From NCBI GenBank assembly GCA_964412955.1, contig CAYPQV010000014.1, positions 20,014 through 84,013 of the forward strand: 64,000 nucleotides of DNA, in the 5' to 3' direction. Origin of the DNA: an uncultured Hyphomicrobiales bacterium. GTDB lineage: Bacteria > Pseudomonadota > Alphaproteobacteria > Rhodospirillales > 2-12-FULL-67-15. The notes below the pieces were generated by a model that was not told the DNA's origin, made no database searches, and saw only the letters and a program-made list of their open reading frames with translations. A program made the position numbers and the translations under genes. This document shows, in pieces, positions 6,032-62,480 of the stretch (its first letter is position 1; each line of letters starts with the position of its first letter).

Positions 6032-6061
6032 GGGGCGCGGGGGAAAGTGCCCCCGCGCCCC
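6032..6061. repeat. Perfect 12-bp GC inverted repeat (GGGGCGCGGGGG / CCCCCGCGCCCC) with a 6-nt loop, between the alpA-like and rep-like genes
   Basis: Read directly: arms at 6032-6043 and 6050-6061, loop AAAGTG. It lies about 90 bp upstream of the rep-like start codon on the minus strand. Confidence 0.6.
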
Positions 6062-6147
6062 TTTGGTGCCTTCCGGCCCCAAAATCCCCGGCGGTGCGGC
6101 CAGCCCCACCGGGGCAAAACCGGGGAGAGTGAGGGCGCGGCTGGGCA

Positions 6148-6387
6148 TCAGGCCGCATCCTGGGAAGTATTGAACCGGCGGTGCTTCTCGATCCAGGCGA
6201 TCAAGTCTCGGCGGCAATAACGGATAGATCGGCTGGAAATCTTGATGAAAGCGGGCCCACCCCCGCGTACTCGCCAGTTTTGAAGGGCGCGGACGGTGTA
6301 GCCAAGGAAACGCGCCGCGTCTTGCTCGTTAAGAAGTTGGTCGAAGTAATCAGGCGAAACCGGATGTTGGTGCGCCAAGGTATCCAT
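6148..6387 (-). CDS. AlpA/excisionase-family helix-turn-helix DNA-binding protein
   Basis: 79 aa. 'LLNEQDAARFLGYTVRALQNWRVRGGGPAFIKISSRSIRYCRRDLIAWI' is typical of AlpA/Xis-type HTH_17 proteins found in integrative islands. Confidence 0.8.
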   Translation of the reverse strand: MDTLAHQHPVSPDYFDQLLNEQDAARFLGYTVRALQNWRVRGGGPAFIKISSRSIRYCRRDLIAWIEKHRRFNTSQDAA

Positions 6388-6475
6388 GTTGGTGTTCTCC
6401 GAATAGCGATTGAGCTACTCGGACAACATCCATGAAAACAAAATCTCGAAAAACATCTATAAATAGGGTTGGAAT

Positions 6476-7237
6476 TTATAGTTTCGAGATTTGTTTTCTT
6501 TCATTGAAAAGGGGGCTAACTATTTTGGCTAACGTTTTATCGTTAAGGCCTTTGGTTTTCTTAGGATCATCGGGAAAATGCGTCAAAACCCACTCCCGTA
6601 TCATCGGGAAATAATGCTTCATGGGTTTCGAGAAATTAATTGCGCCTGAGGCATGTAACGTATTGAAAGCCTCCGAAATTTGATGCTCTCGGCTTGGGCG
6701 GCCAGGGCTCTTTATCCCTTCAGGGAAATGGCGTGCGATTAACTCGGCTTCTTGCGCTGGGGCAATCAAACGAAGCCCGGCCATTTCGAGGCCATTTCCC
6801 TTCGCGTAGTCCTTCTCCCATTTGATTTCGCCTGCCCAAAGGTCAAGCGGAGCCGGTTGGGGAATATCTTCAGCCCGACGAGGCAAGGTAAAGCCATAAG
6901 CCTTAAGCTTTCCAGACTGAATCCACGCGAGGCAATTTGCCTTAAGGGTGCGATCTAGTGCGAGGTAAGCGGATACGTCTTTATTATATTTACCCATCCG
7001 ATCTGAAGGCGATTTTTTAGACTGTATAACTTCGGTGAAGGCCGCCAAGCCTTTGTCAATTCCGGCAGAGTCTCTGGCTACGACATATTTCTGCCTAAAA
7101 TCGCTCGACGCAAAACTTACAAAGGCGGAGCTGAGAGGAATTCCGCGTTTCCAAAATATCCAAGGGTCCATGATTGTTCTTGGTGATAAGCCAAGCCTCC
7201 GAATTGGTAGGGATAAAATAGGATTTGTTTTTGGCAA
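6476..7237 (-). CDS. Hypothetical protein (island orphan; no recognisable motif)
   Basis: A 253-aa ORF in the most AT-rich part of the window, on the same strand as the alpA-like and rep-like genes. I recognise no motifs in it. Confidence 0.5.
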   Translation of the reverse strand: MPKTNPILSLPIRRLGLSPRTIMDPWIFWKRGIPLSSAFVSFASSDFRQKYVVARDSAGIDKGLAAFTEVIQSKKSPSDRMGKYNKDVSAYLALDRTLKANCLAWIQSGKLKAYGFTLPRRAEDIPQPAPLDLWAGEIKWEKDYAKGNGLEMAGLRLIAPAQEAELIARHFPEGIKSPGRPSREHQISEAFNTLHASGAINFSKPMKHYFPMIREWVLTHFPDDPKKTKGLNDKTLAKIVSPLFNERKQISKL

Positions 7238-7275
7238 AAATTAGGCAGTTGGGCATTGGCGGCGGAGGAAGTGTT

Positions 7276-7424
7276 ACGCCCCGTATACAGCTACGTATAC
7301 GGGGCGTCTGATTGGATAACGTGTTCTAGGGGGGCGTTATCGTTTTTCCCCGTTACGTATACGTTACGAGAGGCTCGTTAAATGGGGCTCCGTATACGGG
7401 CCCGTATACGTATACGTAACGGGG
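7276..7424. repeat. Palindrome cluster A: six GTATAC cores with C/G-run flanks
   Basis: GTATAC occurs at 7283, 7295, 7357, 7392, 7404 and 7410. There is a 13-bp inverted repeat at 7276-7288/7295-7307 and a 16-bp inverted repeat at 7348-7363/7409-7424. Confidence 0.85.
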
Positions 7425-7452
7425 GGGGCGGATCGGTCGCGCGAGACTACAA

Positions 7453-7597
7453 CCCTAGGGGTATTTCTCGCGAAGAATCCCCTTAGGGGAGTATATCGAG
7501 ACTGCCAACGAAAAACCCCTAGGGGTTTTTGGCCCCTAGGGGGGCATGTCGGGGCTGCTGATGAAAAGTCCCTAGGGACTTTATGTCCCTAGGGGCT
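7453..7597. repeat. Palindrome cluster B: five CCTAGG and one CCTTAGG cores with C/G-run flanks
   Basis: CCTAGG occurs at 7454, 7518, 7535, 7571 and 7588. TCCCCTTAGGGGA spans 7478-7490. There is a perfect 20-bp palindrome at 7511-7530 and an 18-bp palindrome at 7565-7582. Confidence 0.85.
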
Positions 7598-9013
7598 CGG
7601 TCGCGGAACATCAGATTGTGCGATTCCCGGTACGGGGATTTGCCCCGTACCGGGAATAGTCGGTACTGGATTTTGGGCCATACTCGGTACTGACTTTTTG
7701 TCGGTACTGACGCTTGCCGTCTTATTCTGACTTCCGCCGAGGCTGTCCCCGTACCGGGATACAGTGTTCTCATTGGCCGGAGGATTAGCCCGGTACGGGG
7801 AATTCCCGGTACCGGGATTTTCCGCCTGGGCCTGTGTGGGGCTTTCGGGGGCGTTGTCATTGCCGCCAAAGAGGGCGCGGGCGATCTCCCCGGATATGCG
7901 ATTGGCGGAATCCCGGATGGGGTTGTCAGCCAAGTGGGCATATCGGGCCGTGGTTTGCACTTGGGAATGGCCCAGGAGCTTGCCGATCATGGGAAGGGCC
8001 TCGCCAATGGCAAGAGCACCCGAGGCAAATGTATGTCGAAGGTCATGTATTCGCACGTCATCAAGTCCCGCCCGGGCACGAATGCGCCGCCAAGGGCGTT
8101 CCAGGTCCGTTAAGTGCTGCTTTTCGACCTGGCCGGTAATGACGTACTCGTTGCCTTTGGTCTTCTCTATCCCGTCTAGAACCTTTCTGGCCGCTTCCCC
8201 GAGGTAAACGATCTTTGGACCGGTCTTGGAATCGGGCAGGGTGATGGTGTTCCCGTTAACGTAAGACCATTTTAGGGTTTGGATTTCTCCCCGGCGGCAG
8301 CCGGTCAGGATCAGGAGCTTGAACGCGGCAATGGCGGCCTTGGATTCCGGGTTCTCCTTAAGCTCATCCTCGAAGGCTTGCCCGAGCGCGGCCATTTCTT
8401 TGGCTGATAAAAACCTTTGGCGTTTGTCTTCCCGGTATTTCTTCACATGGTGGCAGGGATTAGACCCGTCCGGGCGCAAGCCCCAGACTTCCGCCAGATT
8501 GAACATCTTGGAAAGGACGCCCAGGGTCCGGTTCGCCTGATAGGGGATATGCCCCATGCCCTGGTGCAGCTTGGCGATATCGGACCGCTTAACGTCGATA
8601 ACCCTAAAAGCACCAATGGCCGGAGCGATGAACAGGCCAATAGACCGCTCATACTCTTTGGCCGTACTCAGCTTGCAGTGATGGGCGACATGCTCCCTAA
8701 GGAAACGGTCGCATACGTCCTTGATGGTAGGGGACTTGCGGCGGGTGTTGATCTCCTCGGCGGGGTTGTCGCCCTTGGCAACCAGGCCAAGAAGCTCCTT
8801 GGCCCGTTTACGGGCTTCGTCCGGGGTCAGGGTGCCATGACGGCCGATATTCACCCGCCGGGTGCGACCCCCGGAGCGATACTGCACCAGATATGTTTTG
8901 CGCCCGCCGGGCAGTACCCGAAGGGCAAAGCCCGGCAAGCCCTCATCGAAAACGAAGTAGTCCTTCGTCTCGGGCTTCGCGCTATCGACAAAACGCTTGG
9001 TCAGTTTCGGCAT
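7589..9013 (-). CDS. int: Tyrosine recombinase / phage-type integrase (P4-like, with N-terminal arm-binding domain)
   Basis: 'GFALRVLPGGRKTYLVQYR' matches the DUF4102-type N-terminus. Catalytic motifs 'HDLRHTFAS' and 'LLGHSQVQTTARYAHL' are present. ATG 9013 (MPKLTKRF) is preferred over 9031. An unusual tail of about 80 aa is encoded by repeat cluster C. Confidence 0.9.
   Translation of the reverse strand: MPKLTKRFVDSAKPETKDYFVFDEGLPGFALRVLPGGRKTYLVQYRSGGRTRRVNIGRHGTLTPDEARKRAKELLGLVAKGDNPAEEINTRRKSPTIKDVCDRFLREHVAHHCKLSTAKEYERSIGLFIAPAIGAFRVIDVKRSDIAKLHQGMGHIPYQANRTLGVLSKMFNLAEVWGLRPDGSNPCHHVKKYREDKRQRFLSAKEMAALGQAFEDELKENPESKAAIAAFKLLILTGCRRGEIQTLKWSYVNGNTITLPDSKTGPKIVYLGEAARKVLDGIEKTKGNEYVITGQVEKQHLTDLERPWRRIRARAGLDDVRIHDLRHTFASGALAIGEALPMIGKLLGHSQVQTTARYAHLADNPIRDSANRISGEIARALFGGNDNAPESPTQAQAENPGTGNSPYRANPPANENTVSRYGDSLGGSQNKTASVSTDKKSVPSMAQNPVPTIPGTGQIPVPGIAQSDVPRPSP
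7623..7817. repeat. Palindrome/iteron cluster C: GGTAC/GTACC cores (inside the 3' end of the int ORF)
   Basis: There is a 15-bp inverted repeat at 7623-7637/7643-7657. TCGGTACTG direct repeats occur at 7660, 7684 and 7701. CCCCGTACCGGGA spans 7747-7759, CCCGGTACGGGG spans 7789-7800, and the palindrome TCCCGGTACCGGGA spans 7804-7817. Confidence 0.85.
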
Positions 9014-9172
9014 GGCGATTTCTGGAAGCAATCTGGAAGCAGTTGGAAGCAGAATCGGGAGTCAACCAGCGTGAGTCAGTGTAGACCCGCACCGTGAATC
9101 CTCTAAGCAAAACAAGGCGAAATGATGGTGTTTCGTAGGTCAGAGAAGTTGAGCGAAACAGTCCGAGCGAAA

Positions 9173-9842: not shown

Positions 9843-12785
9843 CTACGCCCGGCTCACCTTGCAGAGCAGGGTTTTGAGATTGGTCTGGTCCGAGATCGGG
9901 TCGCGCTGGGTTCGGTCGGTGAGGAAATTCACCGAACGCCACGGATGATGGGGCTGCTTTTCGCCCCAGCCGATCGGAATGAAGACACTTGTTTCCCGGA
10001 TCCCGGTCGTGAGCCACGCCACGGCCTCGATCGCGCCGTGGGCGGTTTCGACCTTGACCCGATCGCCGTCGGCTATGCCGAGCTTCGCGGCGCGCGTCGG
10101 GTGAATCTGAACGTAGAGATTCGACCACATTTCCTGGGCCTGCCAGAAATAATGAGTAAGGCTGTGGAAGTGCGGCGCGGGCGGGCGGCCGGTCACCAGC
10201 TCCAGATCGTATCCTTGCGCCCGCAGTCGTGCGCCCGGCGAGTCGGCGCCCGGTTGACGGATGCGCGCCGGCGAAGCGAACACCGCCATCTTCTGAAGCG
10301 GCGAAAGGATGCCTTCGGCCGTATCCGGCTCCAGGAACTCGACATACGGCAGATCGATCAGTTGCTCGCGCTCGCTGTAGAACTCGGGAAGGGCGGATAG
10401 CCCCAGGCTGCGGAACTTCCTCTCCAACGCCTCGGTGTGGAACTCCAGCTTGCCGCTCGGCGTCGGGAAGCGCTTGCCCGGATGGCCGGGCGGCGACGTC
10501 CCTTCGAGGAACAGGGTCTCCTGTTCGGGCGCGTCCGCGCTGGCCATCGGATAACGGATCCACCGATGCGGCACCGCATGCAGGCGCTCTTGCGTAATGC
10601 CGCGTAAATGATCGGTGTCGATGCACATTTCGTCCCAAAAGAGCGCGGGGTCCTTGTACTTCTCCTGAAGCACGTCGTCGAAGCCGAACCGTTTGCCGAG
10701 CTCGATCCAAATCCAGTCGTCCGATTTGGCGTCGCCCGGCGGCTCGATCATTTTGTCGATCCAGACGATGCGGCGGTCGTCGTTGGCCCGTCCGATCTCG
10801 CCTTTTTCAATGCCGGTCGCGGCCGGAAGCACGTAGTCGGCGTAAGCCGACGTCTCGTTCGCGAACAGTTCGATGTGAACGAGGAGATCGAGGGCCAGGA
10901 ACGCTTCGCGCGTGGCGGATTGCCCGGGCCAATTGGAGAGAGGGTTGTTGCACGCAATCAGGGCCCTGATCGGGTAGGGCTTGCCGACGCGCATCGCATC
11001 GGCCCAGCCGGCCGGGTTGCGGCGGACCATCGGCCGCTTCGGCTTGACGCGGCGATGCTCCGGCGCCGCCGCCGAGAACATGGGCGACGCGGACATGTTC
11101 AGGAACGCGCCGCCGGGACGGCCCCAATTGCCCGTAATCGCGGCCAGGAACATCAGTACGCGGTTGGTCTGAGCCGAATTCGTATGCTGGTTTATGCCGC
11201 GGCTCGCGAAGATCACGCACCCGTCGGCCGCCGCGATGTCCGCGGCGAGGGCGCGAATGTCCGCGGCAGCGAGGCCGGTGATCGCGGCCGCCCACTCGGG
11301 CGTATATCCGCGCTCGAAGATGAAGTCGCGCCAGCGCTCCCAGCCTTCGACCCAATTCTCGCAGAACCGGCGGTCGTGCAAGCCGCGCCCGAGGATGTCA
11401 TGAGCCAAGGCGAGCGCGAGCGCCATGTCGGTGCCCGGCCGGATCGGCAGCCACTGATCGGCCTTGCTCGCCGTCGCCGTCAGGCGAGGATCGATCACGA
11501 CCATTTTGGCGCGGTTCTTGATGCGCCAGTTGTTGACCATGCCGAAATAGACGGGCCGCGCCTCGGCTTGGTTATCGCCGAAGTGGACATACATACGCGC
11601 GCTGCCGATGTCGCCGTCGGTGTAGCTGTTGGGACAGATCACGTCGCCTTGCGTCATCTCGTAGGCGGCATGCTTGCCGGCGGAGCAAAATGGATCGGTT
11701 CCCTCGAAATTGGGAGAGCCCCACATCTGGCCGAAAATCCTGATGTACCCGTTCCTGCTGAGCGTGCCGGTGCGGGTTCCGGCGAATACGGCCAACGCTT
11801 CCGGTCCGAAAGCGTCGCGGGTCGCCCGTATCTTGGCGGCGATCTCGTCGAGCGCCTGGTCCCATGAGATCGGCTCAAAGCGTCCTTCGCCGCGCGCGCC
11901 TACCCGTTTCAAGGGCCGCGTCAGGCGCCGTTCGTTGTTGTAGAGCTGCAGCGTGAGCTGCGATTTGGGGCAAACCTTTCCCTTAAGGACCGGATCGTCT
12001 TCGTTGCCGGTGATCTGCACCAGCTTGTCGCCGCGGAAATGGAACTTGGTCGAGCAGCAGTTGAAGCAGATATTGCAGCCGCCCGGGGCCACGCGGTCGG
12101 CGGTCCGCTCCTCGCGCGGAAGGCAATAGGGGAACGCCGTTTGGGCGTCAGGCAACCGCCCTCCCGCCGCGTCGTCCATGACCGCCGGCCGCCGCCGGCC
12201 TTCCACCGCATCGCTGCGAACCGCAGTCGCGTTGGGGTGCGCACGCGATAGTCGGTCCAGATAGAGGGTCGCCGGACCCATCAGGTAATGATCGTGGTCG
12301 CGCACGGTGCGGTTTTCCGCCTCGGCGCGGGCAAGATGCTGGGTGCGTTCGCCGAAGCTGATCGCATGGCCGGGACAAACGCTGGCGCAAGCCGGCGTGC
12401 GGCCCTGCGCACGCCGATCGGCGCACAGATCGCACTTCACCGAATGGTGGCCGACGGGATCGTAGCCCATCGCGCCGTATGGGCACGCGATCACGCACTC
12501 CCCGCATCCGGTGCATCGTTCCTCGAGGACTCGAACGACCCCCGTATCGGGATCTTTGACGATCGCCTTGGGATTGACCGGGCAGGCGCGCAAGCAGGCC
12601 GGACGCTCGCAGTGCTGGCAGGTGACGGTGAGGAAATCGAGGCCCGGCTGTACCGGGTCGCCGAGCCAAACGACGCGGTTCCTGTACTCGCCGGGCCCGA
12701 GGCCGTGTTCCTGCTTGCAGGCGACCTCGCAGCTCTTGCAGCCGATACAGCGTTCGAGATCGATCATTAACGCCAGTCGACCCAT
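9843..12785 (-). CDS. Fused 4x[4Fe-4S] ferredoxin (DmsB/PsrB-like) and molybdopterin oxidoreductase catalytic subunit (DMSO reductase family); substrate unknown
   Basis: The N-terminus carries Cys clusters 'CIGCKSCEVAC', 'CQHCERPAC', 'CTGCGECVIAC' and 'CDLC..C..VC'. These are followed by 'CNICFNCC-X27-C' and long molybdopterin-binding domains. The start at MGRLALMIDLERC has a GAGGA Shine-Dalgarno. No Tat signal is present. Confidence 0.85.
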   Translation of the reverse strand: MGRLALMIDLERCIGCKSCEVACKQEHGLGPGEYRNRVVWLGDPVQPGLDFLTVTCQHCERPACLRACPVNPKAIVKDPDTGVVRVLEERCTGCGECVIACPYGAMGYDPVGHHSVKCDLCADRRAQGRTPACASVCPGHAISFGERTQHLARAEAENRTVRDHDHYLMGPATLYLDRLSRAHPNATAVRSDAVEGRRRPAVMDDAAGGRLPDAQTAFPYCLPREERTADRVAPGGCNICFNCCSTKFHFRGDKLVQITGNEDDPVLKGKVCPKSQLTLQLYNNERRLTRPLKRVGARGEGRFEPISWDQALDEIAAKIRATRDAFGPEALAVFAGTRTGTLSRNGYIRIFGQMWGSPNFEGTDPFCSAGKHAAYEMTQGDVICPNSYTDGDIGSARMYVHFGDNQAEARPVYFGMVNNWRIKNRAKMVVIDPRLTATASKADQWLPIRPGTDMALALALAHDILGRGLHDRRFCENWVEGWERWRDFIFERGYTPEWAAAITGLAAADIRALAADIAAADGCVIFASRGINQHTNSAQTNRVLMFLAAITGNWGRPGGAFLNMSASPMFSAAAPEHRRVKPKRPMVRRNPAGWADAMRVGKPYPIRALIACNNPLSNWPGQSATREAFLALDLLVHIELFANETSAYADYVLPAATGIEKGEIGRANDDRRIVWIDKMIEPPGDAKSDDWIWIELGKRFGFDDVLQEKYKDPALFWDEMCIDTDHLRGITQERLHAVPHRWIRYPMASADAPEQETLFLEGTSPPGHPGKRFPTPSGKLEFHTEALERKFRSLGLSALPEFYSEREQLIDLPYVEFLEPDTAEGILSPLQKMAVFASPARIRQPGADSPGARLRAQGYDLELVTGRPPAPHFHSLTHYFWQAQEMWSNLYVQIHPTRAAKLGIADGDRVKVETAHGAIEAVAWLTTGIRETSVFIPIGWGEKQPHHPWRSVNFLTDRTQRDPISDQTNLKTLLCKVSRA

Positions 12786-12796
12786 GCCCTTTTCCT

Positions 12797-13651
12797 CTAC
12801 CAATCCGCGAGGTGCCACCACGTGATTGGTCCGCCGTCCGCCACATATCCGGCGAAGAACGTGACCGTCATTACATGGATGAAAATGCCGAAAATAAAGA
12901 GATAGGCCAACGCCAAATGGAGCGGGCGCCAGTAAGCCTGCTCCGGCCCGACCGAAGCCCTCGTTCCCATCAGGCGGTTTTCCTCGCGGACCAGCCGGGC
13001 ATACCGAAGCGCCGCGCGGGGCGTCCGCAGCCAGTGAGCGAGCGTGAGTGAAAAGGTGCCTTCGTCGGCGGTTCCGTCGATCGAGGGCAGCAAGGCGCGT
13101 TTGCGGGCGATCACGTCACGCAGACCGTCTCGCGTCGCGGGTGTCCCGGGCGCGAAGCTTCGTTGCTTGGTGGCGAACGTTGCCGCCATTTGGCGAGACA
13201 GCCGAACGCGGGCCCACACGCCCAACGCGACCAGCCCGAGCAGCGCCAGGAACAGCAGTGCGGGCGGGCGACGCAAATACCCCGCGGAATGCACCCCGAT
13301 CAGCACTCCGCCGACCGTGCTTGCGACGACGTGCGCAATAAACCAAACCGGCGGAAAGCCGCCGCGGCCGGTGCGCTTGACCCACACGAACGCCATGGAC
13401 ACGAGCAGCAGGGCGGTTCCCGCGACACCCGTGAGGTAAAGCTCGGGACTGCCCGGTTTACGCCAGGCTTCCGGCAGGACCGCCTGGACGAACGCAAAAT
13501 AAATGACGAGCGCGGCGGCGGCGGCGGCGATCAGCGCGATCAGCGCGCGATCGCTGAGGTCCGGACGTTTTCGGATCCGTCCATCGTTGGGGCCGCGACC
13601 GTCGCGCTGTGTCGTGCTGATCAAAGGCGAACCCGGCCCGGCATTTTGCAT
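12797..13651 (-). CDS. Integral membrane protein, possible haem-b-type anchor for the downstream oxidoreductase
   Basis: Several hydrophobic segments carry embedded His residues (IAHVV, GVHSAG, PLHLAL, FIHVMT). The stop lies 11 nt before the oxidoreductase start. Confidence 0.6.
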   Translation of the reverse strand: MQNAGPGSPLISTTQRDGRGPNDGRIRKRPDLSDRALIALIAAAAAALVIYFAFVQAVLPEAWRKPGSPELYLTGVAGTALLLVSMAFVWVKRTGRGGFPPVWFIAHVVASTVGGVLIGVHSAGYLRRPPALLFLALLGLVALGVWARVRLSRQMAATFATKQRSFAPGTPATRDGLRDVIARKRALLPSIDGTADEGTFSLTLAHWLRTPRAALRYARLVREENRLMGTRASVGPEQAYWRPLHLALAYLFIFGIFIHVMTVTFFAGYVADGGPITWWHLADW

Positions 13652-13847
13652 CGATCGATCTGCATGAGTGTTCTCTCAGCTTTTAGGGTCTGCGAGAGTT
13701 TGTACAGGATTGCGTTCTGTCCGTATTTATATACGGTAATTAGGATGTTGCGTAACCGGGGGCCAGGCGAAAAGGCGCGTGATTACAGAGGGTTCTGGGG
13801 TTCTCGGTTGTGCGGCCAACGCGGCCCGGGAAAAAAACCGAAAAAAC

Positions 13848-15449
13848 CTAGAACGCCAGAATCATGTCGCTGGCTTTTTCGGCGATCATGGTCACGGGCG
13901 CGTTGGTGTTCCCGGAAACCAGCGTCGGCATGATCGAGCAATCGACGACCCGCAATCCGTCGATTCCGTGAACGCGCAGGTTCGCGTCGACGACGGCCAT
14001 GGGATCGCGGCCCATCTTGCAGGTTCCCGACGGATGGAAAATCGTCGCCCCCTGTTCGCGACAGAACGCGAGCAGGTCGTCGTCCGATGTCGCCGCCGGG
14101 CCGGGACGGAATTCTTCCCGAACGTACGGGCGCATGGCATCGGTTCCGGCCAGGCGCCGGGCGAACCTGACGGCGGCGACGGCGCAGCGGCGGTCGAGGT
14201 CCGTGGACAAATAATTGGGCCGCATCGCGGGCGGCTGCCACGGGTCGGGGGATTGAATCCGAACCGTTCCGCGCGACGAGGGGCGAAGCTGGCAGACGCT
14301 GAAGGTGAATCCGGAAAACGGATGCGGCTGGGCGCCCGCCATGTCGGCCGAAACGGTGGCGAAATGAAACTGGATGTCCGGGGAACGGGACTCGGGCAGA
14401 ACCTTGGTGAACAGCCCTCCCTGGTTGATGCCGACGGCGAGAGGGCCGGAGCGGAGCAGAAGCCATTGCAGGCCGATCTTGGCGGTCCGGATCCAGGATC
14501 GCAGGTCGTCGTTGGTGGTGATGGGCTTCGCGCACTTGAAGATCAATCGGAATTGAAGGTGGTCCTGAAGATTCTCGCCGACGCCGGGAAGATCGGCGAC
14601 GACGTCGACGCCGCAGTCCCGCAGCAGGCGGGCCGGACCGATACCGGACAGCTGAAGCAGTTGCGGGCTTTGCAGAGCGCCCGCCGCCAGGATGACCTCC
14701 CGGCGGGCGCCGGCGACGAATCGCCGGCCGTGCCTGGCGTATTCGATTCCGGTCGCGCGCGGCCGTTGCCCGAGCGGATGGGCGAAAACGATTTTCATCG
14801 CCTGGGCATCGGTCATGACGGTCAGGTTGGCGCGCCCGCGCGCCGGCTTCAGGTAGGCGACCGCGTTGCTGCATCGCCAGCCGTTGCGCGTGAACAGCTG
14901 GTAATAGCCGACGCCTTCCTGGGTCGCGCCGTTGAAGTCGGGGTTGCGGGGAACGCCCAGGGCCTGCGCGCCGGCGATGATCGCCTCGATCAGTTCGTGC
15001 GGCTCGCCGATGTCCGAGCACTTGAGGGGGCCGTCGCCGCCGTGCCATTCGTCGGCGCCGCGGCTGTTCCCTTCGAGCTTCTTGAAATAGGGCAGCACGT
15101 CCCTGGCGCTCCATCCGGCGTTGCCGAGTTCGGCCCAGCGGTCGTAATCCTCGTGTTGGCCGCGGATGTAAATCAAACCGTTGATGGAGGACGATCCGCC
15201 GAGGCAGCGTCCGCGCGGCCAGTAGATCCGGCGGTCGTCCATTCCGGGATCGGGCTCGGTATGGAATCCCCAGTTGAAGACCGGGTGGAACATGGTCTTG
15301 GCGTAGCCGATGGGAATATGAATCCACGGATAATCGTCGACCGGGCCCGCTTCCAGCAGAAGGACGCGATGCCGGCCGCCGTCGCTCAGCCGATGGGCGA
15401 GAACGCATCCGGCGGTTCCCGCGCCGACGATGACGTAATCGTAGTTCAT
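13848..15449 (-). CDS. GMC-family FAD oxidoreductase (choline/alcohol dehydrogenase-like)
   Basis: 'YDYVIVGAGTAGCVLAHRLS' FAD fold, GMC signature regions, and C-terminal 'HPSGTCKMG'. Confidence 0.9.
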   Translation of the reverse strand: MNYDYVIVGAGTAGCVLAHRLSDGGRHRVLLLEAGPVDDYPWIHIPIGYAKTMFHPVFNWGFHTEPDPGMDDRRIYWPRGRCLGGSSSINGLIYIRGQHEDYDRWAELGNAGWSARDVLPYFKKLEGNSRGADEWHGGDGPLKCSDIGEPHELIEAIIAGAQALGVPRNPDFNGATQEGVGYYQLFTRNGWRCSNAVAYLKPARGRANLTVMTDAQAMKIVFAHPLGQRPRATGIEYARHGRRFVAGARREVILAAGALQSPQLLQLSGIGPARLLRDCGVDVVADLPGVGENLQDHLQFRLIFKCAKPITTNDDLRSWIRTAKIGLQWLLLRSGPLAVGINQGGLFTKVLPESRSPDIQFHFATVSADMAGAQPHPFSGFTFSVCQLRPSSRGTVRIQSPDPWQPPAMRPNYLSTDLDRRCAVAAVRFARRLAGTDAMRPYVREEFRPGPAATSDDDLLAFCREQGATIFHPSGTCKMGRDPMAVVDANLRVHGIDGLRVVDCSIMPTLVSGNTNAPVTMIAEKASDMILAF

Positions 15450-15486
15450 TCAATCTCCCCGAACGAAAACTGCATTTAGCAAGAAA

Positions 15487-15505
15487 ATGGAACATATAGT
15501 TCCAT
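15487..15505. promoter_or_regulatory. Putative IclR-type operator palindrome in a divergent promoter region
   Basis: ATGGAACATATAGTTCCAT has perfect 7-bp arms and resembles the TGGAA-N-TTCCA architecture of IclR boxes. It lies between the GMC oxidoreductase and iclR-family genes. Confidence 0.4.
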
Positions 15506-15619
15506 AATAGCGGTCGGCAGTATTGTTCTCCGCAACGATTGTGTCTAGCATGTTGCGGCCCGCCGACGCGATCGATCGGGACGAACAGGGCGCGCGGGAT
15601 TCGCCATCAGGTCCGTTGA

Positions 15620-17878
<2,259 letters not shown>

Positions 17879-18658
17879 ATGACCGACCCTTCCTTCCTGC
17901 GGCGCTGTTTTTCGCTCGACGGCCGCCGCGCCTTCGTCACCGGCGGCAATTCGGGCGTGGGCGCGGCGATGGCGCTGGCGCTCGGGCTGGCGGGCGCCCG
18001 TGTCGTCGTCGCCGGGCGGCGGGAAAAGGAAAACCGCGAGGCCATCGCGCGCCTCAGGCAGGCCGGAATCGAGAGCGACTCTTTTACCTGCGATCTGGCG
18101 CGCCAGGACGCGCTGCCGGATATCGGGCGGACCATCGCCGGACGTTGGCCGGATATCGAAATCCTCGTCAACGCGGCGGGAGTCAACCTGCGCGAGCCTT
18201 TCGCCGAGGTCACGCCCGAAACCTGGCAGACCCATATCGCGCTCCATCTTTCGGCCCCGTTTTTCCTGACCCAGGCGCTGGCGCCGGCGATGGCGGCGCG
18301 CGGCCGGGGACGGATCATCAATCTGGCGTCGCTGCAATCCTACCGGGCGTTCGACAACGGCGCTCCCTACGGCGCGGCCAAGGGCGGCGTGGTGCAGCTG
18401 ACCCGGGCGATCGCCCAGGAGTGGTCTTCGCGCGGAATCACCTGCAACGCCGTCGGGCCCGGCATTTTCCCGACGCCGCTGACTGATCCGGTTTTCAAGA
18501 ACGAAGCCCTGGCCGCGCATCACGCCGCGCGCACCGCCATCGGCCGAAACGGCCGTGACGAAGACCTGCACGGCGTCACCGTTTTCCTGGCCGGCGACGC
18601 CTCCGCCTACATCACCGGACAGGTGATCATGGTGGACGGCGGATACACGGCGAAGTGA
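17879..18658 (+). CDS. Short-chain dehydrogenase/reductase (HpsO-like by context)
   Basis: '[12 protein letters not shown]' (TGxxxGxG) and 'YGAAKGG' (YxxxK). The ATG abuts the upstream stop (TGAATG). Confidence 0.85.
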
Positions 18659-18686: not shown

Positions 18687-19727
18687 ATGAAAGCCTTGGT
18701 CTACACCGCGCCCAACGAAGTTCAACTGCTCGATCGGTCGTATCCCGATCTGGCGGAGGGCGAGGCGATCGTCCGCATCGAGGCGGTGGGCATCTGCGGG
18801 TCGGACATGCATGCGTATCACGGGCACGATCCACGCCGGAAGCCCGGCCTCGTGCTGGGGCACGAGTTTTCGGGGATTGTCGCGGACTCGGCAGACCAAA
18901 CCCTCAAGCCCGGCGCGCGCGTGACCGGCAATCCCCTGATCGTGTGCGGGCAGTGCGAATACTGCCGGCAGGGTCGGGACAATCTGTGCGCCCGCCGCAC
19001 CATGGTCGGCATGAACCGGCCGGGAGCCTTCGCCGAATACATGAGCATTCCGGCGGCGGCGCTGATCCCGGTTCCGGACGACCTCGACCTGACCAAGGCG
19101 GCGTTGGCCGAACCGGCGGCGACGGCGCTGCACGCGGTCGACCTTTCGGTTCGCCACCTGGTCAAGCCGTTGGCCGATTGCCGCGTCCTGATCCTGGGCG
19201 GCGGCGCGATCGGGCTTTTGAGCGCGCTTCTCCTCAAGAGCCGCGGCGTGACGCGCCTCGACGTGGCCGAGGTCAACCCCGAAAGGCGGGCGCGGCTGCA
19301 GGCCGTCACCGGATACCCCGCTCACGATCCGAAGGAAACGCCGCCGGCCGAGTCCGGCGCGGACTACGTGATCGACGCGGTCGGATCGGCGGGCACGCGC
19401 AAGGCGGCGCTTCATGCCGTCCGTCCCGGCGGGGTGGTGATGCATATCGGGTTGCAGGACTGGGCCAGCGAAATCGACATGCGCAAGCTGACCTTGGCCG
19501 AGATCGCTCTTCTCGGCACTTACACCTATTCGACGGCGGATTTGCGCGAAACGGTGGCGGCGATCGCGCGCGACGACTTCGGCGACCTTTCGTGGATCGA
19601 AGCCCGTCCGCTGTCCGAGGGGCCGACGGCCTTCGCGGATTTGCATCACGCCCGGGTGTCGTCGGCGAAGATCGTTCTTCTTCCGCACGAGGCCGGCCTT
19701 CGCAGGGGCTCGGCCTCGTCATGGTGA
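18687..19727 (+). CDS. Zn-dependent medium-chain alcohol dehydrogenase (HpsP-like by context)
   Basis: 'GICGSDMHAYHG', 'GHEFSG' and 'CGQCEYCRQG' zinc motifs, plus the 'ILGGGAIG' NAD fold. Confidence 0.85.
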   Translation: MKALVYTAPNEVQLLDRSYPDLAEGEAIVRIEAVGICGSDMHAYHGHDPRRKPGLVLGHEFSGIVADSADQTLKPGARVTGNPLIVCGQCEYCRQGRDNLCARRTMVGMNRPGAFAEYMSIPAAALIPVPDDLDLTKAALAEPAATALHAVDLSVRHLVKPLADCRVLILGGGAIGLLSALLLKSRGVTRLDVAEVNPERRARLQAVTGYPAHDPKETPPAESGADYVIDAVGSAGTRKAALHAVRPGGVVMHIGLQDWASEIDMRKLTLAEIALLGTYTYSTADLRETVAAIARDDFGDLSWIEARPLSEGPTAFADLHHARVSSAKIVLLPHEAGLRRGSASSW

Positions 19728-20443
19728 TGGAACATTGGCCATGGTTTTTGATCATCGCGATTGCGGCCGGACTGGTGCGGGGGTTGACCGGGTTCGGCGG
19801 CGCAATGGTGATGACGCTTCCCCTGGCGTGGCTTCTCCCGCCGGGGGAGGCCATTTCCGTCGTGTTGCTGATGGAGAGCATCGCCGCCGCGCCGTTGCTT
19901 CGCCGCGCGTACGCCGATTGCTCGGGAAAGACGTTGGTGCCGATTTGCGTGTTCGCCGCCGTTTTTCTGCCGTTCGGCGTCATGGCCCAGTCGCGGATGG
20001 ACCCGGACACGGTTCGGACCGGCATTGCGCTGTTGGTCCTGGTTTTTTCCGTGCTGTTGATGTTCGGAGTCGGAATCCGGAACGCGCCGCCGCGCTGGGT
20101 TTCCGGCGTGGTGGGAAGCGTGGGCGGGTTTCTGATGGGCTCGACCGCGATCGGCGGCCCGATCGTCGTGCTCTATCTCATGGCGTTGAAGGATTCGCCC
20201 GAGGTCGCGCGGGCCAATCTCATGATCTACATTACGTTCGTCGCCAGCTTCGGGCTCCTGATTCTGATCTTGAACGGGGCCGTCGGCCGATCGGGGCTTT
20301 ATCTGATGTTGCTGATGACGCCGATTTACCTGGTCGGCGGATTCAGCGGCGAGCGTCTGGCCCGCAGTCTGCCGGTGAACGCCCTCCGTCGCTTCACGCT
20401 CTCGTTCCTGGCGCTTTCGGGAATGGTGTCCCTATTCCTCTGA
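19721..20443 (+). CDS. TSUP-family membrane transporter (TauE/SafE sulfite exporter family)
   Basis: Polytopic membrane protein with 'GLTGFGGA' and duplicated 4-TM halves. It overlaps the ADH stop by 7 nt. Confidence 0.8.
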   Translation: MVMEHWPWFLIIAIAAGLVRGLTGFGGAMVMTLPLAWLLPPGEAISVVLLMESIAAAPLLRRAYADCSGKTLVPICVFAAVFLPFGVMAQSRMDPDTVRTGIALLVLVFSVLLMFGVGIRNAPPRWVSGVVGSVGGFLMGSTAIGGPIVVLYLMALKDSPEVARANLMIYITFVASFGLLILILNGAVGRSGLYLMLLMTPIYLVGGFSGERLARSLPVNALRRFTLSFLALSGMVSLFL

Positions 20444-20572
20444 CGGAGTTGCGAATATGCAACCTCACATATGAATCCGCGTTTCGGGAAAGGAGGCCGA
20501 TGACCAGAACGTTCGTTGCGAGTGCGTATCCCATGCGAGTACCATGAAACCTCTAACCACAGGGAGATCAAC

Positions 20573-57929: not shown

Positions 57930-58283
57930 TCAAACGACCGAGAACGACGTGCCGCAGCCGCAGGTCGAGACCGCGTTCGGGTTGCTCATCTTGAAATAGG
58001 AGCCGACCAGGTCCTCGACGAAATCGAGGGTCGCGCCCTTGACCAGGTCGAGCGACGTTTCGTCGACCACCACCTTGACGCCGTTCCGCTCGAACACGCG
58101 GTCGTCGTCGGCCGTGGTCGCGTCGAGCTTGAAGCCGTACTGAAAGCCCGAGCAGCCGCCGCCCGAAACCGTGACCCGCAGCATCAGGTCGGGGTTGCCT
58201 TCGGCCGCGGCGATGGCGCGAATGCGCCGGGCGGCGTTTTCGCTGACGACGAGACCGGACTCGGGAACGGGCGTGTCGGGCAT
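57930..58283 (-). CDS. erpA: Iron-sulfur cluster insertion protein (ErpA/IscA family)
   Basis: 'GGGCSGFQY' and C-terminal 'CGCGTSF'. Confidence 0.9.
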   Translation of the reverse strand: MPDTPVPESGLVVSENAARRIRAIAAAEGNPDLMLRVTVSGGGCSGFQYGFKLDATTADDDRVFERNGVKVVVDETSLDLVKGATLDFVEDLVGSYFKMSNPNAVSTCGCGTSFSVV

Positions 58284-58475
58284 GGGAATCTCCGCCGGCA
58301 ACAGTAGGACTTTATTTAACCTACCGGGCGCGCTTGTCAATCGAGCGCCATCCCGTCCCGTTTTCCGGGACGGAGCGTTTTCGCGAGTCTTACGCCGATA
58401 AAAGTGCTAAAATAAATGTTGTTTTCCGATACCGCGAAGAGAATGGCCATGGGTCCCGTGATCGACAAACGCGAG

Positions 58476-59774
58476 ATGCGGATCAAGCCTCCCCGTCGGC
58501 GCGGAGGCTTTCGCGGAACGCGCGGGGCATCCATCGCCCTGGCCCTCGGTGCGGTGGTTGCCGTCTGGGCGGGCGGACCGGCGCAGGCCGATTTCATTCT
58601 TCCCGATACGCCCGCCAATCGGTCGCGCGGGGTCGTCGGCTGCGTGCAAAGAAGCAGCGGCAGCATCGATTGCGCGGGACGCTCCAGCGGCTCCAGTTCG
58701 CAAGGCGGCAGTTCCCCTTCCGCCCCTTCCTCGGCTCCTTCCCGCCAAGAGGACTATCGCCAGCGGCAGATCGAAGCGGACGCCATCCGCAAGCGCCAAA
58801 GCGAGGCGGCGCGCAAGCACCTCGACTACCCCGATGTCCAAAGCGGCATAAGCCGCGGCGAATACCGGGCTCGTCGGCAGCAAAACGAAGCCGCGAATAT
58901 CGAGGCGATCCGCAGACTGCGCCAGCTGCGCGAAGGGTCGGCCGCGCAGAAAGAACCGCCCCATATCGACAAGATCGAAGTCCCCGCGCCTTCGGCTCTC
59001 GACCAACAAACGCGGTATCGGGACGGATGGCGGGAAAGTTTATGGGAAAAAATGTGGCGGTTGTGGGATTCGCCGGAACGTCTTGAGTATACCACTTGGT
59101 TGAACGATCCCATGCATCGCGAATGGCTCAGCGATGCATTTCAGATTGCATCCTTTCCAATGGACCTTCAGGGGTTTGCGCATGCCATCAAGTCGATCAA
59201 GTCACCTGTCGGAAGAACGGTACAAGAAATCTTGGCCGAGGAGCACGGCGTGTTGTTCCCAGGTATGTTCAAGGAAGCGGGTTCTGCCAGCGGCCTTAAA
59301 TACGCCGAAGAGCTTCAGGCCATCTCTAAGAAGTACGGCGTACCCTTTGATATCGTAGGGTCGCTTGCTGAAACCGAGCTGGGCAAGATGAGGCGGGCCA
59401 ATCCTCTGCTGCGGGAGGTCTTGCCTGAATTCAGACAAGAGAAATGGTGGTGGTCGGGAGGCGATATAGATATTCGGTTCTCCGAAGACACGCTTAAAAA
59501 AGTCGGCCCGGAGCGGGCGCTCAAAGTGGTCGAGGATGTCCACAAGGTTATCACCGGCAAAAGCTATTACGAGCCCGGCGGCTGGTCCGTAGATGTGGCT
59601 TATTCGAAAATTTATCCGACAGAAGAGAAGATGAAGGGGCTGCCCGCGCTGAGATTCGAGCCCGGCGGGTGGCGTCAGGAAATGGGCTGGGGTGCGCCAA
59701 CGTTCACGCCGCCCGTGGAGAACAAAGTGCTGTACGAGAATCCGAAATACGGGCTTAATCTGCGGCTGAATTGA
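58476..59774 (+). CDS. Exported hypothetical protein (Ser-rich linker, Arg/Gln-rich helical region, globular C-terminal half)
   Basis: Signal peptide 'RGASIALALGAVVAVWAGGPAQA' (the ORF is open from 58416). It lies in a lower-GC patch. I recognise no motifs. Confidence 0.55.
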   Translation: MRIKPPRRRGGFRGTRGASIALALGAVVAVWAGGPAQADFILPDTPANRSRGVVGCVQRSSGSIDCAGRSSGSSSQGGSSPSAPSSAPSRQEDYRQRQIEADAIRKRQSEAARKHLDYPDVQSGISRGEYRARRQQNEAANIEAIRRLRQLREGSAAQKEPPHIDKIEVPAPSALDQQTRYRDGWRESLWEKMWRLWDSPERLEYTTWLNDPMHREWLSDAFQIASFPMDLQGFAHAIKSIKSPVGRTVQEILAEEHGVLFPGMFKEAGSASGLKYAEELQAISKKYGVPFDIVGSLAETELGKMRRANPLLREVLPEFRQEKWWWSGGDIDIRFSEDTLKKVGPERALKVVEDVHKVITGKSYYEPGGWSVDVAYSKIYPTEEKMKGLPALRFEPGGWRQEMGWGAPTFTPPVENKVLYENPKYGLNLRLN

Positions 59775-59811
59775 CGCATGTGAACGGAATCGGCGAGACG
59801 GGGATGGTGGC

Positions 59812-60378
59812 ATGATCTTAGGCAGGCAAATCCTGGTTTTGGCCGCGGTCCTGCTGGCGTGGGAAACGATGACCGACGTCGGCGCGGCACGGGCTCAGGG
59901 GAAATCCCCGGATACCGGCATCGCGATTGTGGATGTCGGCGCCGTCCTGGAGAAATCGCTGCCGGCGAAAAATTTGCGGCAGATCATCGAGAAGACGCGC
60001 GCCGATTATAGGCGCGAAGTCGACGCCAAGAGAGACGAGATCGAAAAGCTGGGCGAGAGCATAGAACGGACCCGCGGCGGACTTTCGGAGGACGAATTTC
60101 AAAAGAGAATGCGGAACCTTCGGCAGAAGATCGCGAACAATGAAAGCGATATGCGCGAACGCCAGAGTAAGTTAGAGGGCGCATTCGCTTCCGCCCCACA
60201 GAAAATCGGGGTGACGATCGAACAGATCGTCGATGAAATCAGGAAGGAACGTAAGTACCAACTGGTTTTGCCGCGATCCGTCGTTGTGGGTGCGTCCGAC
60301 GCCCCCGACATCACCCAGGAGGTTCTCGATCGTCTCAACAAACGCATGCCCACGGTCGACATCGATATTCCGAAATAA
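59812..60378 (+). CDS. OmpH/Skp-like periplasmic chaperone
   Basis: Signal peptide, 'IAIVDVGAVLEKS', and a long charged coiled-coil typical of Skp/OmpH. Confidence 0.7.
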   Translation: MILGRQILVLAAVLLAWETMTDVGAARAQGKSPDTGIAIVDVGAVLEKSLPAKNLRQIIEKTRADYRREVDAKRDEIEKLGESIERTRGGLSEDEFQKRMRNLRQKIANNESDMRERQSKLEGAFASAPQKIGVTIEQIVDEIRKERKYQLVLPRSVVVGASDAPDITQEVLDRLNKRMPTVDIDIPK

Positions 60379-60391
60379 AGGGCATAAGCCC

Positions 60392-60967
60392 ATGGGCGCC
60401 TCGCACTTCAAGACGATGTTCCGTTTGGCGGCGGCGATTCTGTCGGCGGGGGTTGTCTTCGGGGCCCCTTCCACAAGCGCCTCCGATCTATCCGCAAGCG
60501 AGCGCAAACAGGAACAGGCGAACACGATCCGCGAACGGGCCAAGGCCGGCGCGCGCGTCGACCTCGGTTACGAAGACGTCTTTCCTTCGTTGCGCCGCGA
60601 CTATTACGACCCCTATCTGCTCAGCCAGCAGATCGCGCGCTTGGCGGCGATGGTTCGCCAACTCGCCGACACCGCGGCCGCCCGCCCGCCTGGCGGCCTC
60701 GCGTTGGGCGCGCCGCCCGGGTTGCGTCCGACCGTCGAGGGCGACGATGTCACCGCGCTGTACGGGCCGAAAGGTCCGACGGTGGAGAGCGTCAAGCTGT
60801 TGCTCGATTATTATCTCATGGTCGCGGGCAATCCCCGCCTCACGGCGGGACGGGTCCGCGACGCGGGAGACGCCGTCAATGCCCAGGTCGTGACCAAGGA
60901 CGGCGGGGCGGTGGTTGAGGAATACGCCGTGAATAAAAAGTCGGGCGTTTGGGTTCCGCTGCGCTGA
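60392..60967 (+). CDS. Exported hypothetical protein
   Basis: Signal peptide 'FRLAAAILSAGVVFGAPSTSA'. No recognised motif. Confidence 0.5.
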   Translation: MGASHFKTMFRLAAAILSAGVVFGAPSTSASDLSASERKQEQANTIRERAKAGARVDLGYEDVFPSLRRDYYDPYLLSQQIARLAAMVRQLADTAAARPPGGLALGAPPGLRPTVEGDDVTALYGPKGPTVESVKLLLDYYLMVAGNPRLTAGRVRDAGDAVNAQVVTKDGGAVVEEYAVNKKSGVWVPLR

Positions 60968-60993
60968 ATCATGATCGGGAAAGGAGCCGTCAC

Positions 60994-62031
60994 ATGTTAC
61001 GAGCCATCATCCTTGCGGTTGCGGGCGCGGCGTTTCTGACGGCCTGCCAAACCACCGAGGACAAGTCCTCGGATAAGACTCCGGCGATGCAATTGGCGCA
61101 AGCCGGTTCGACCCAAAGCGACGCGAGCGGAGCAGGCGCTTCCTCCGCACCGCAACTGGCCCCGCCGACGGGCCCGAAGCGGACGGTCGCCGTCGGCAAG
61201 TTCGACGCGATCGGCGCGTTCACGGCCAAGTATGGCGAATGGGACATCGGCGGCGGACTCGCCGCCATGCTCACCACGGCGCTGGCGGAATCGGGCCGGT
61301 TCGTCGTGATCGAGCGCGCCAACCTGTCCCAGATTCTGGGCGAGCAGGAACTGAAGGCGGGCGGCCTCGCCAACCCGGAAACGGGCCCCAAGCTGGGGCA
61401 GCTCACGGGCGTTCAATTCCTTATTTACGGTTCGGTGACCGAATTCGGCCACGACGAGAAGGGCGGCGGGTTCAGTTTCGGATTCAGCGGCGCGAAGATT
61501 CCGCTGGGCTTGTCGCAACAGAGCACCACGGGCACCGTCGGCATGGACATTCGGGTGGTCGACACGACGACCGGCGTGGTGCTGGAAACCCATCGCGTGC
61601 GTGAAAGCATCTCGACCGAAGGCTGGGATGTCAGCGCCGGATACAAGGGGATCAGCTTCGGCACCAACCAGTTCGACAAGACTCCGCTCGGCCAGGCGTC
61701 GCGGTCGGCAATCGTCCGGGCGGTGGAATTCATCGCCGTGCGTGCGGAAAAATCGCCTTGGACCGGCCAAGTGGTCGAGTACGACGGCAAGCGGTTGTAC
61801 ATCAACGCCGGCGAGCGCTCGGGCATGAAGGTCGGCGATCAGTTCATGATCGAGCGGGCGGGCAAGGTGATGACCGATCCGGCGACCGGCGAAGTGCTGA
61901 GCGTGCGCAAGGAGGAAATCGGCGTTCTGCGACTGGGCAAGGTCGAGGAGAAGATTTCCTCGGGAACTTTCACTCCGCTGTCATCCAAGCCGCCGCAACG
62001 CGGTGATTCCGCTCAATTGATGTCGCGTTAG
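60994..62031 (+). CDS. CsgG-family outer-membrane lipoprotein with an extra C-terminal beta-domain
   Basis: Lipobox 'FLTAC'. CsgG-type motifs 'VAVGKFD', 'FVVIERANLSQILGEQEL' and 'LTGVQFLIYGSVTEFG'. A C-terminal segment of about 90 aa carries 'YINAGERSGMKVGDQFMI...DPATGEVL'. Confidence 0.75.
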   Translation: MLRAIILAVAGAAFLTACQTTEDKSSDKTPAMQLAQAGSTQSDASGAGASSAPQLAPPTGPKRTVAVGKFDAIGAFTAKYGEWDIGGGLAAMLTTALAESGRFVVIERANLSQILGEQELKAGGLANPETGPKLGQLTGVQFLIYGSVTEFGHDEKGGGFSFGFSGAKIPLGLSQQSTTGTVGMDIRVVDTTTGVVLETHRVRESISTEGWDVSAGYKGISFGTNQFDKTPLGQASRSAIVRAVEFIAVRAEKSPWTGQVVEYDGKRLYINAGERSGMKVGDQFMIERAGKVMTDPATGEVLSVRKEEIGVLRLGKVEEKISSGTFTPLSSKPPQRGDSAQLMSR

Positions 62032-62480
62032 CCTTTTTCGGATTTCGCGCGACCCTTGCGCGCGGCGCGCCGGAACGCGCGCACGCCCGCCTCGGCGCAG
62101 GCGCGGTCCTGCTCGGGGGTCCCTGAGCTGCAGCCGATCCCGCCCACCACCACGCCATTGACTTCCACCGGCACGCCACCGCCGACGGTCGAGAAGCGTC
62201 CACCGTGCGCGCTCTGGATGCCGAAGGCGAGGTTTCCGGGCACCGCGCGCGCGTTATAGTCGTGGGTCGGCCGGCGCGAGATCGCGGCGGTGAACGCCTT
62301 GTCCTGGGAAAGCTGGACCGAAAGAACCTTCGATCCGTCCATGCGCGCGAACGCGATCAGGTTGCCCGATTCGTCGGTGACGGCGACGCACATAGGCGCC
62401 TTGATGCGCCGCGCGTGGGCCGAAGCGCCCGCGATCAGGATTTCGGCGTCGGCCAGCGCGAGGCGGGAAATCGAGAGCAT
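62028..62480 (-). CDS. GlcG/HbpS-like haem-binding family protein (DUF336)
   Basis: 'CVAVTDESGNLIAFARMDG' and 'GGGVPVEVNGVVVGGIGCSSGT'. Confidence 0.8.
   Translation of the reverse strand: MLSISRLALADAEILIAGASAHARRIKAPMCVAVTDESGNLIAFARMDGSKVLSVQLSQDKAFTAAISRRPTHDYNARAVPGNLAFGIQSAHGGRFSTVGGGVPVEVNGVVVGGIGCSSGTPEQDRACAEAGVRAFRRAARKGRAKSEKG

Follow-up and report, generated by a model that had tools for sequence, protein, structure and literature searches.

The window analysed here is a stretch of 64,000 nucleotides from contig CAYPQV010000014.1 of an uncultured Hyphomicrobiales bacterium, and the subject of this study is a cluster of four genes (g1 to g4) at positions 58416-62031 that ends in a gene for a lipoprotein of the CsgG family. 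The four open reading frames (ORFs) are on the plus strand with spacers of 37, 13, and 26 nt, and the N-termini of all four products resemble signal peptides, so the run of closely spaced genes for exported proteins described in the original prediction is real. The stop of g1 is at 59774, and candidate starts at 58416, 58449, and 58476 give proteins of 452, 441, and 432 aa, respectively. An exported Skp/OmpH-like protein of 188 aa is encoded by g2 (59812-60378), an exported partner of the lipoprotein, of 191 aa and from a new family, by g3 (60392-60967), and a CsgG-family outer-membrane lipoprotein of 345 aa with an additional C-terminal beta domain by g4 (60994-62031). The cluster is flanked on the g1 side by an erpA-like gene (57930-58340) and on the g4 side by an HbpS/GlcG-like gene (62028-62480), both on the minus strand. 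An Rfam scan and promoter and terminator scans of the cluster region gave nothing useful.

All four genes had been described as lying in an AT-rich patch. This was true of the part of g1 that encodes its C-terminal payload (GC 0.546) and of g2 (GC 0.568), compared with a window mean of 0.636, but not of the part of g1 that encodes its conserved N-terminal module (the N-module; 0.686), g3 (0.665), or g4 (0.640), all of which were typical of the window. The AT-richer patch, low in GC and in GC at third codon positions (GC3), therefore consists of the g1 payload and g2 only. Because its GC falls in the bottom tenth of windows of the same size, the dip is moderate and not extreme.

As profile searches showed, g4 belongs to the CsgG family. 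It matched the Pfam CsgG model (PF03783) with an E of 3.4e-36 and 125 bits (cut-off 20.8) over model positions 8-208 of 210, and the CsgG domain covers residues 61-258 (61174-61767). Residues 85-216 aligned to E. coli CsgG structures in a PDB sequence match (E 1.8e-6). The lipobox of g4 is LTAC with Gln at +2. In the family alignment, an invariant loop, GPKRTVAVGKFDA.G.FT..YG.WDIGGGL.AM, was found in the region matching the CsgG constriction loop, and the segment equivalent to the first transmembrane (TM1) hairpin was, by eye, about as long as in E. coli CsgG. The last part of the protein (residues 265-345, 61786-62031) is an FlgT_C/TsaP-like domain: residues 265-327 matched Pfam FlgT_C (PF16538) with an E of 1.2e-4 and 22.9 bits, under the cut-off of 27, and residues 268-334 matched the P. 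aeruginosa TsaP chain 6ve2_O of the PilQ complex (E 9.4e-6). The C domains of TsaP, which are FlgT_C-like, build a ring round the PilQ secretin (bioRxiv 10.1101/2020.05.29.123786). The best explanation of these matches is that g4 retains the curli channel's segments for the constriction loop and the hairpins, with a putatively periplasmic FlgT_C/TsaP-like domain added to them, which bears out the CsgG-type lipoprotein with a C-terminal extension that had been proposed.

Against the curated NCBIfam models, g4 scored 25.6 bits for the curli CsgG equivalog PRK15184 (505 required), 20.8 bits for the HfaB equivalog NF037935 (300 required), and 33.3 bits for LpoB, TIGR02722 (110.55 required; E 4.7e-8, residues 90-150 only). 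These cut-offs rule out g4 as an orthologue of curli CsgG, HfaB, or LpoB. The window copy of g4 is intact and was seen on 5 contigs. In L006 (4700-5736) and L007 (1785-2822), metagenome contigs that share about 90% identity with the window, the g4 homologue was broken into two ORFs with different breakpoints, which could be due to pseudogenisation or to sequencing indels.

The protein encoded by g3 matched no Pfam or NCBIfam family and is thus the orphan it had been taken for. It had 16 homologues among 5.8 billion proteins and was found at 12 loci among 185,579 species genomes, all of them metagenome-assembled genomes (MAGs) labelled Alphaproteobacteria, Rhodospirillales, Hyphomicrobiales, or Thalassospiraceae. 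At all 24 related loci with a readable downstream flank, g3 was immediately upstream of a g4 homologue, and these g4 homologues bear the same C-terminal domain. Those of the related loci that are classified all come from alphaproteobacterial MAGs. The AlphaFold2 (AF2) model of g3 contained a pair of long helices and a small domain in which one helix accompanies four strands, with a predicted local distance difference test score (pLDDT) of 87-93 for the C-terminal domain. Foldseek searches of the PDB with this fold found nothing better than an E of 0.07, and only generic weak cystatin/NTF2-like matches. As judged from this linkage, g3-g4 is a conserved two-gene module, presumably of the envelope, that is rare and found in alphaproteobacterial MAGs. 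For the product of g3, the role of a fixed partner to the lipoprotein is more plausible than that of a substrate. Contrary to what had been supposed, the four genes as a whole are not conserved together; only g3 and g4 were invariably linked, while the C-terminal two thirds of g1 and the whole of g2 are replaceable.

The N-terminal ~155 aa of g1 are conserved and contain a signal peptide, a 30-aa tag with two cysteines, a Ser-rich linker, and a basic helix. Counted from the start at 58476, the signal peptide comprises residues 1-38 (58476-58589), with cleavage predicted after AQA by applying the -3/-1 rule by eye. The tag, DFILPDTPANRSRGVVGCVQRSSGSIDCAGR, follows at 58590-58682; its two Cys presumably form a disulfide loop, and pLDDT was 87-94 over residues 40-70 of the AF2 model. 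The alignment places a Ser-rich low-complexity linker at 58683-58745 (pLDDT below 50 for residues 77-84). Behind it, basic Arg/Gln-rich helices (58746-58946) were modelled at residues 89-114 and 127-156 with a pLDDT of about 90, and a motif, R.Q..A..IR.R....AR..L.YPDV, was found at about 58758-58859. A Tat signal was rejected for g1, as RRRGGF misfits the motif and the leaders of the relatives are plainly of the Sec type. Nor was VVGC in the tag accepted as a lipobox, since it sits 20 charged residues past the hydrophobic core. When the first helix of g3 was compared with the basic helix of g1 in hhalign, the two were related with a probability of 88% (E 3.1e-6, 34 columns). The common motif of 34 residues (58758-58859 in g1) terminates in L.Y[PE]DV. 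Because the helix behind the linker of g1 is homologous to the first helix of g3, a common docking surface is suggested for the two proteins. The giant proteins of loci L014-L016, described below, have a similar G-Y-x-x-V end after a charged helix, without statistical support.

The g1 payload (58947-59774) is Trp-rich and without a family match, with a conserved G-S...DxD...D pattern and invariant D.D, R, R, Y, and W residues. As had been noted, the first gene carries no known motif: g1 matched no Pfam (E up to 0.1) or NCBIfam family. A word-index search of the 5.8 billion proteins with the whole of g1, swamped by Ser-rich words, gave 4 homologues only, and the same search with the payload alone returned g1 itself and one 90% relative. 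Remote relatives of the payload were found at the C-termini of P0042, P0059, and P0022. Searches of Pfam (E up to 10) and of PDB sequences with the payload found nothing significant. Foldseek also found nothing significant, and several of its weak matches were Pol-beta-type nucleotidyltransferases. Because the AF2 model of the payload is of low confidence, a nucleotidyltransferase-like payload is a weak lead only.

Two g1 homologues resembled g1 in the first ~155 residues only; beyond these, P0003 is a class-3 lipase and P0004 an M48 peptidase. The lipase retains GHSLGG and the peptidase HELSH, and the best solved relative of the lipase payload was 7ubz_B, a lipase effector of type VI secretion (T6SS; E 2.2e-7). 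P0003 is encoded on contig L001, which is syntenic with the window (xthA, a histidine kinase gene, and erpA upstream). The DNA of the window and of L001 was ~80% identical up to 58946, after which no identity was found until ~60518 inside g3. The swappable lower-GC cassette, made up of the g1 payload and g2, was accordingly placed at 58947-60391, and the replaced segment coincides exactly with the low-GC, low-GC3 patch. At the cassette position, L001, L003, and L008 carry a lipase payload and a gene for an exported protein of 295-297 aa. The lipase gene and the downstream gene overlap by 25 nt, and the 295-aa protein belongs to no known family. The N-modules were 69-75% identical across loci with unrelated payloads. 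The cassette of g1-type payload and Skp-like gene was found in the window, L006, and L031, of which L031 has the most divergent core (g4 81% identical), while the lipase cassette was found in L001, whose upstream synteny matches that of the window, and in L003 and L008. Cassette type therefore did not track core similarity, and at least two replacements are needed. These alignments indicate that the g1 payload and g2 are a replaceable cassette, with the N-module apparently inherited with the g3-g4 core. A conserved N-terminal trafficking region followed by unrelated C-terminal domains in close relatives is a mark of polymorphic toxin systems, and g1 and its homologues show this pattern.

The partner gene varied with the payload: a Skp-like gene was found with the g1-type payload and the gene for the 295-aa exported protein with the lipase, and no partner gene was found at the M48 locus. 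The Skp/OmpH-like nature of g2, already noted in the original prediction, was supported by a full-length match to Pfam OmpH (E 1.5e-21, 77.5 bits, cut-off 32.4) and by the best PDB match, the OmpH-like 4kqt. Because g2 misses the cut-off of the NCBIfam equivalog for housekeeping Skp (16.5 bits, 237 required), it is a divergent paralogue. Skp-like genes accompany g1-type payloads in L006, L007, and L031 and are absent from the lipase cassettes, and the Skp-like gene of L017 (54% identity to g2) accompanies a different payload. The putative chaperone travels with one payload type and not with the channel. By g4 identity (90%), L030 is the closest relative; there the gene (3-380) upstream of g3 ends in an unrelated 125-aa C-terminal fragment that resembles no cassette seen, and this locus may hold a third cassette or none.

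A profile of the N-module was compared with 1.84 billion representative proteins and matched 44 clusters. In ~40 of these, the motif [x1-4]LPDT.ANR.RGVVGC.QTSSGI.C was located directly behind the signal peptide, followed by a Gly/Ser linker and then by widely differing C-termini. P0042 and P0045 have ~330 N-terminal residues in common and then diverge, the C-terminus of P0042 being a g1-type payload. In the proteins P0025-P0060, the LPDT.ANR.RGVVGC tag is followed by a Gly-rich linker and an MM..LMN.F..G..RGLE segment, then by one TPR-like unit and a coiled coil, together with repeated 'FFG.GGG' and 'LFSKGTKYSAPVDLR' motifs and variable C-termini. This architecture is not described in Pfam or NCBIfam. 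P0023 (3464 aa) matched the N-module profile through 35 short stretches of Ser-rich linker only, a low-complexity artefact, and is not a family member. A search of plasmids with the N-module gave no match.

An N-module gene was found beside a g4 homologue in three arrangements. In the clade of the window it is upstream on the same strand. In L002 it is convergent (GC 0.51, M48 payload, no g3), and in L017 it is divergent; there the tag is a variant, ADFVVPPVGPGKCVANCP, the payload differs, and a Skp-like gene is present. Other loci carry much larger genes. In L014-L016, L019, and L020, the gene directly after g4 encodes an exported protein of 2200-2900 aa, and in L005 a comparable gene follows g4 behind an insertion-sequence pair (transposase genes). 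Big_9-bearing proteins are among the giants directly after g4, and the giant of L020 belongs to the Rhs proteins (RHS_repeat E 2.3e-50), having a core-end motif and, at its C-terminus, a domain of ~210 aa. Overall, a gene for a large exported protein adjoins g3-g4 at 11 of the 12 loci with usable flanks. The giant proteins and the N-module are alike in layout, with a signal peptide, a short Cys-containing segment, a low-complexity linker, and a charged helix. Comparison of the giant-protein N-termini with g3 or the N-module in hhalign gave probabilities of 1-3%, which is not significant, and on this basis the likeness is one of resemblance and not of homology.

The Rhs genes of L020 are a tandem pair (12000-18584 and 18694-20534) directly after g4; both products bear signal peptides and have the same N-terminus, and the first ends in NRIDPLG followed by the ~210-aa domain, which contains Cys and His. 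Divergent to g3-g4 on the minus strand, L014 (7422-9698), L015 (7512-9707), and L016 (7516-9705) encode an exported protein of 730-758 aa with a signal peptide, ANGCCGK, an Arg/Glu-rich helix, and a long Thr/Pro-rich region. Its gene is followed by one for a 277-aa exported protein. Neither protein had a Pfam match, and the two genes may be another pair of cargo and partner. At the other end of the window, positions 1-9031 form an island with a GC of ~0.49 that resembles an integrated mobile element. Its genes encode the methylase (10-1614) and the specificity subunit (1488-2999) of a type I restriction-modification system, an unassigned 541-aa protein, a 390-aa minus-strand protein, and a tyrosine-integrase-like protein (7589-9031).

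Most knowledge of CsgG channels comes from curli amyloid, with holdfast anchors added by inference. The known contexts of the family are curli, HfaABD, and the CsgG-DUF4810-GNA1162 cluster, and a literature search found no paper describing the arrangement of g1 to g4. The likeness to curli (type VIII) secretion lies in g4, a lipoprotein for which both the complete Pfam CsgG model and structures of E. coli CsgG gave matches. Further likenesses would be a Sec-exported cargo with an N-terminal targeting segment that crosses unfolded, and an exported accessory partner, g3. However, no homologue of CsgA, B, E, or F was found at the locus in Pfam and NCBIfam scans, as the original prediction had already stated, g4 has the extra FlgT_C-like domain, the fold of g3 is unrelated, and the cargo is enzyme-like and polymorphic instead of amyloid. 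In Caulobacter, the alphaproteobacterial CsgG homologue HfaB is needed to place HfaA and HfaD on the surface (PMC6707917). The g4 locus likewise combines an alphaproteobacterial CsgG homologue with neighbouring exported proteins, but none of the neighbours is HfaA- or HfaD-like. The widespread three-gene cluster of CsgG/HfaB, DUF4810, and GNA1162 (bioRxiv 10.1101/2021.05.19.444899) is likewise an uncharacterised operon with a CsgG-family gene and no curli genes. The partner genes there encode two small lipoproteins, whereas g3 matched neither DUF4810 nor GNA1162 in Pfam, and both are absent from the window. The best plasmid match to g4 was on a Polaromonas plasmid (L032; 30% identity), where DUF4810 and GNA1162 genes are present.

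In Neisseria, an oligomer of the lipoprotein MafA secretes the Sec-dependent polymorphic toxin MafB via a conserved N-terminal domain, and the authors of that work themselves liken MafA to CsgG (PMC7738311). Both systems place a gene for an outer-membrane lipoprotein beside one for a Sec-dependent protein with a conserved N-terminus and a variable C-terminus, and both have small downstream genes. However, g1 is without DUF1020 (Pfam, E up to 0.1), and g4 genuinely belongs to the CsgG family. The comparison, made via Pfam only, detected no relation in sequence, and Maf serves solely as an analogue. Over its last ~80 aa, g4 resembles the beta-roll domain of FlgT and TsaP that builds rings around outer-membrane machines, although in g4 it is fused to a CsgG domain and not to LysM or FlgT N/M domains. 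The sister cassette with the lipase recalls the Tle lipase effectors of T6SS and their periplasmic Tli immunity proteins, as its lipase is nearest to a T6SS effector and the lipase gene overlaps the next gene, which encodes an exported protein, but delivery by Sec and an outer-membrane module, not by a T6SS, is proposed here.

Taken together, we tentatively favour a CsgG-based two-step module for the export or display of polymorphic effectors, similar to MafA/MafB, a reading to which we give a little less than an even chance. In such a module, g1 would pass the inner membrane by Sec, and the Skp-like g2, as a holdase, would hold its payload unfolded. The N-module would dock onto g3/g4, and the polypeptide would thread an oligomeric CsgG-like channel to the cell surface or the medium, where the payload would act as an exo-enzyme or an antibacterial toxin. 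A dedicated Skp paralogue fits this route because one class of cargo must stay unfolded for a narrow channel. The cassettes would have been exchanged by recombination at the Pro-rich junction behind the helix. Of the distinct CsgG module with its own chaperone and novel substrates that had been envisaged, the distinct module, the cargo of its own, and the Skp-like gene stand, whereas g3 does not appear to be a substrate and g2 is tied to the payload. A more specific version, in which g3-g4 forms the outer-membrane part of an undescribed pathway that exports Sec-dependent polymorphic toxins in two steps through a CsgG-family channel (tagged enzymes here, giant and Rhs proteins elsewhere) with cassettes exchanged between strains, is conceivable but rather unlikely.

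Several observations weigh against export through g4. The lipobox Cys is absent in 3 of 13 g4 homologues (L002, L013, and L020), and the segment equivalent to TM2 is, by eye, ~6 aa shorter than in E. coli CsgG. A weak match of g4 to FlgT_M (E 2.7e-6), like its likeness to LpoB, points to ring lipoproteins that are not channels. The wider tag family consists mostly of TPR or coiled-coil proteins, not obvious toxins, and a CsgG-like gene was found at none of 8 tag-bearing metagenome loci (flanks up to 10 kb). L002 has a g4 homologue without g3, and L010 and L030 have no obvious cargo gene. Threading proteins of 430 to 2900 residues through the narrow CsgG channel without an energy source is unproven, no activity was identified for the g1 payload, and no immunity gene was established. 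Because of the 8 tag loci, the TPR and coiled-coil proteins, the loss of the Cys, the short TM2, and the likeness to ring lipoproteins, surface anchoring and a periplasmic scaffold are live rivals.

If, after passage through the g4 channel, the g1 tag stayed in or under the barrel, the payload or giant protein would be shown on the cell and not released, as an anchored enzyme, an adhesin, or a contact-dependent toxin. Such surface display is unlikely on our estimate, although the position of the tag at the extreme N-terminus of the mature protein, with a flexible linker behind it, agrees with it. So do the giants, both Big_9-bearing and Rhs, that other loci encode directly after g4. Such anchoring would resemble that of CsgF, whose N-terminal peptide reportedly sits in the lumen of CsgG in published CsgG:CsgF structures; the tag showed no resemblance to CsgF, compared by eye only. 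That the anchor proteins HfaA and HfaD need the CsgG homologue HfaB to reach the surface (PMC6707917) also speaks for display, while the width of the channel and the tag genes without a nearby CsgG gene speak against it.

Equally improbable in our view is that g3-g4 forms a ring tethered to the outer membrane, of the LpoB, FlgT, TsaP, or PelC type, instead of a channel. In that case the N-module would recruit enzymes that act in the cell's own periplasm, namely an M48 protease (BepA/LoiP-like), a phospholipase, and a Skp chaperone. Both Skp and peptidases of the M48 type are classical players in outer-membrane quality control, and their presence here fits such a scaffold, as do the weak FlgT_M and LpoB matches of g4, its extra domain of the ring-building type, and the TPR repeats of many tag proteins, which are also found in periplasmic scaffolds. 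Yet the full-length match to the CsgG model takes in both hairpin segments, and the rarity of the module is extreme, with 12 carriers among 185,579 species genomes. Conflict systems, and not housekeeping ones, typically show the exchange of payloads, low GC, an exported-protein gene that overlaps its neighbour, a lipase like a T6SS effector, and an Rhs neighbour. Finally, g1-g2 might be an independent island of effector and chaperone that uses a general export route and lies at a recombination-prone site by an unrelated g3-g4. The tag family is widespread without an adjacent CsgG gene, some g3-g4 loci are without a tag gene, and the base composition of the cassette is foreign, all in agreement with a chance neighbourhood. 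This is nevertheless very unlikely: because the cassette boundary falls within g1, the core keeps its N-module and the payload alone changes. Furthermore, the adjacency recurs in three lineages and three orientations, g1 and g3 have the helix motif in common, and nearly all g3-g4 loci with usable flanks adjoin a gene for a large exported protein.

If the favoured export or display module is correct, a CsgG module dedicated to exchangeable enzymes or toxins would broaden the part that such channels play, and would provide a sequence-defined relative for the poorly understood Sec-dependent toxin export of the MafA/MafB type. It would also hint at how Rhs proteins bearing signal peptides exit the periplasm, and would define a short transferable N-terminal tag. 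Were the periplasmic scaffold right instead, g3-g4 would represent a new way to tether envelope-maintenance enzymes. Should the toxin-export pathway prove true, it would be the first CsgG (type VIII-like) system to export toxins, and the tag family of ~40 clusters would acquire a function.

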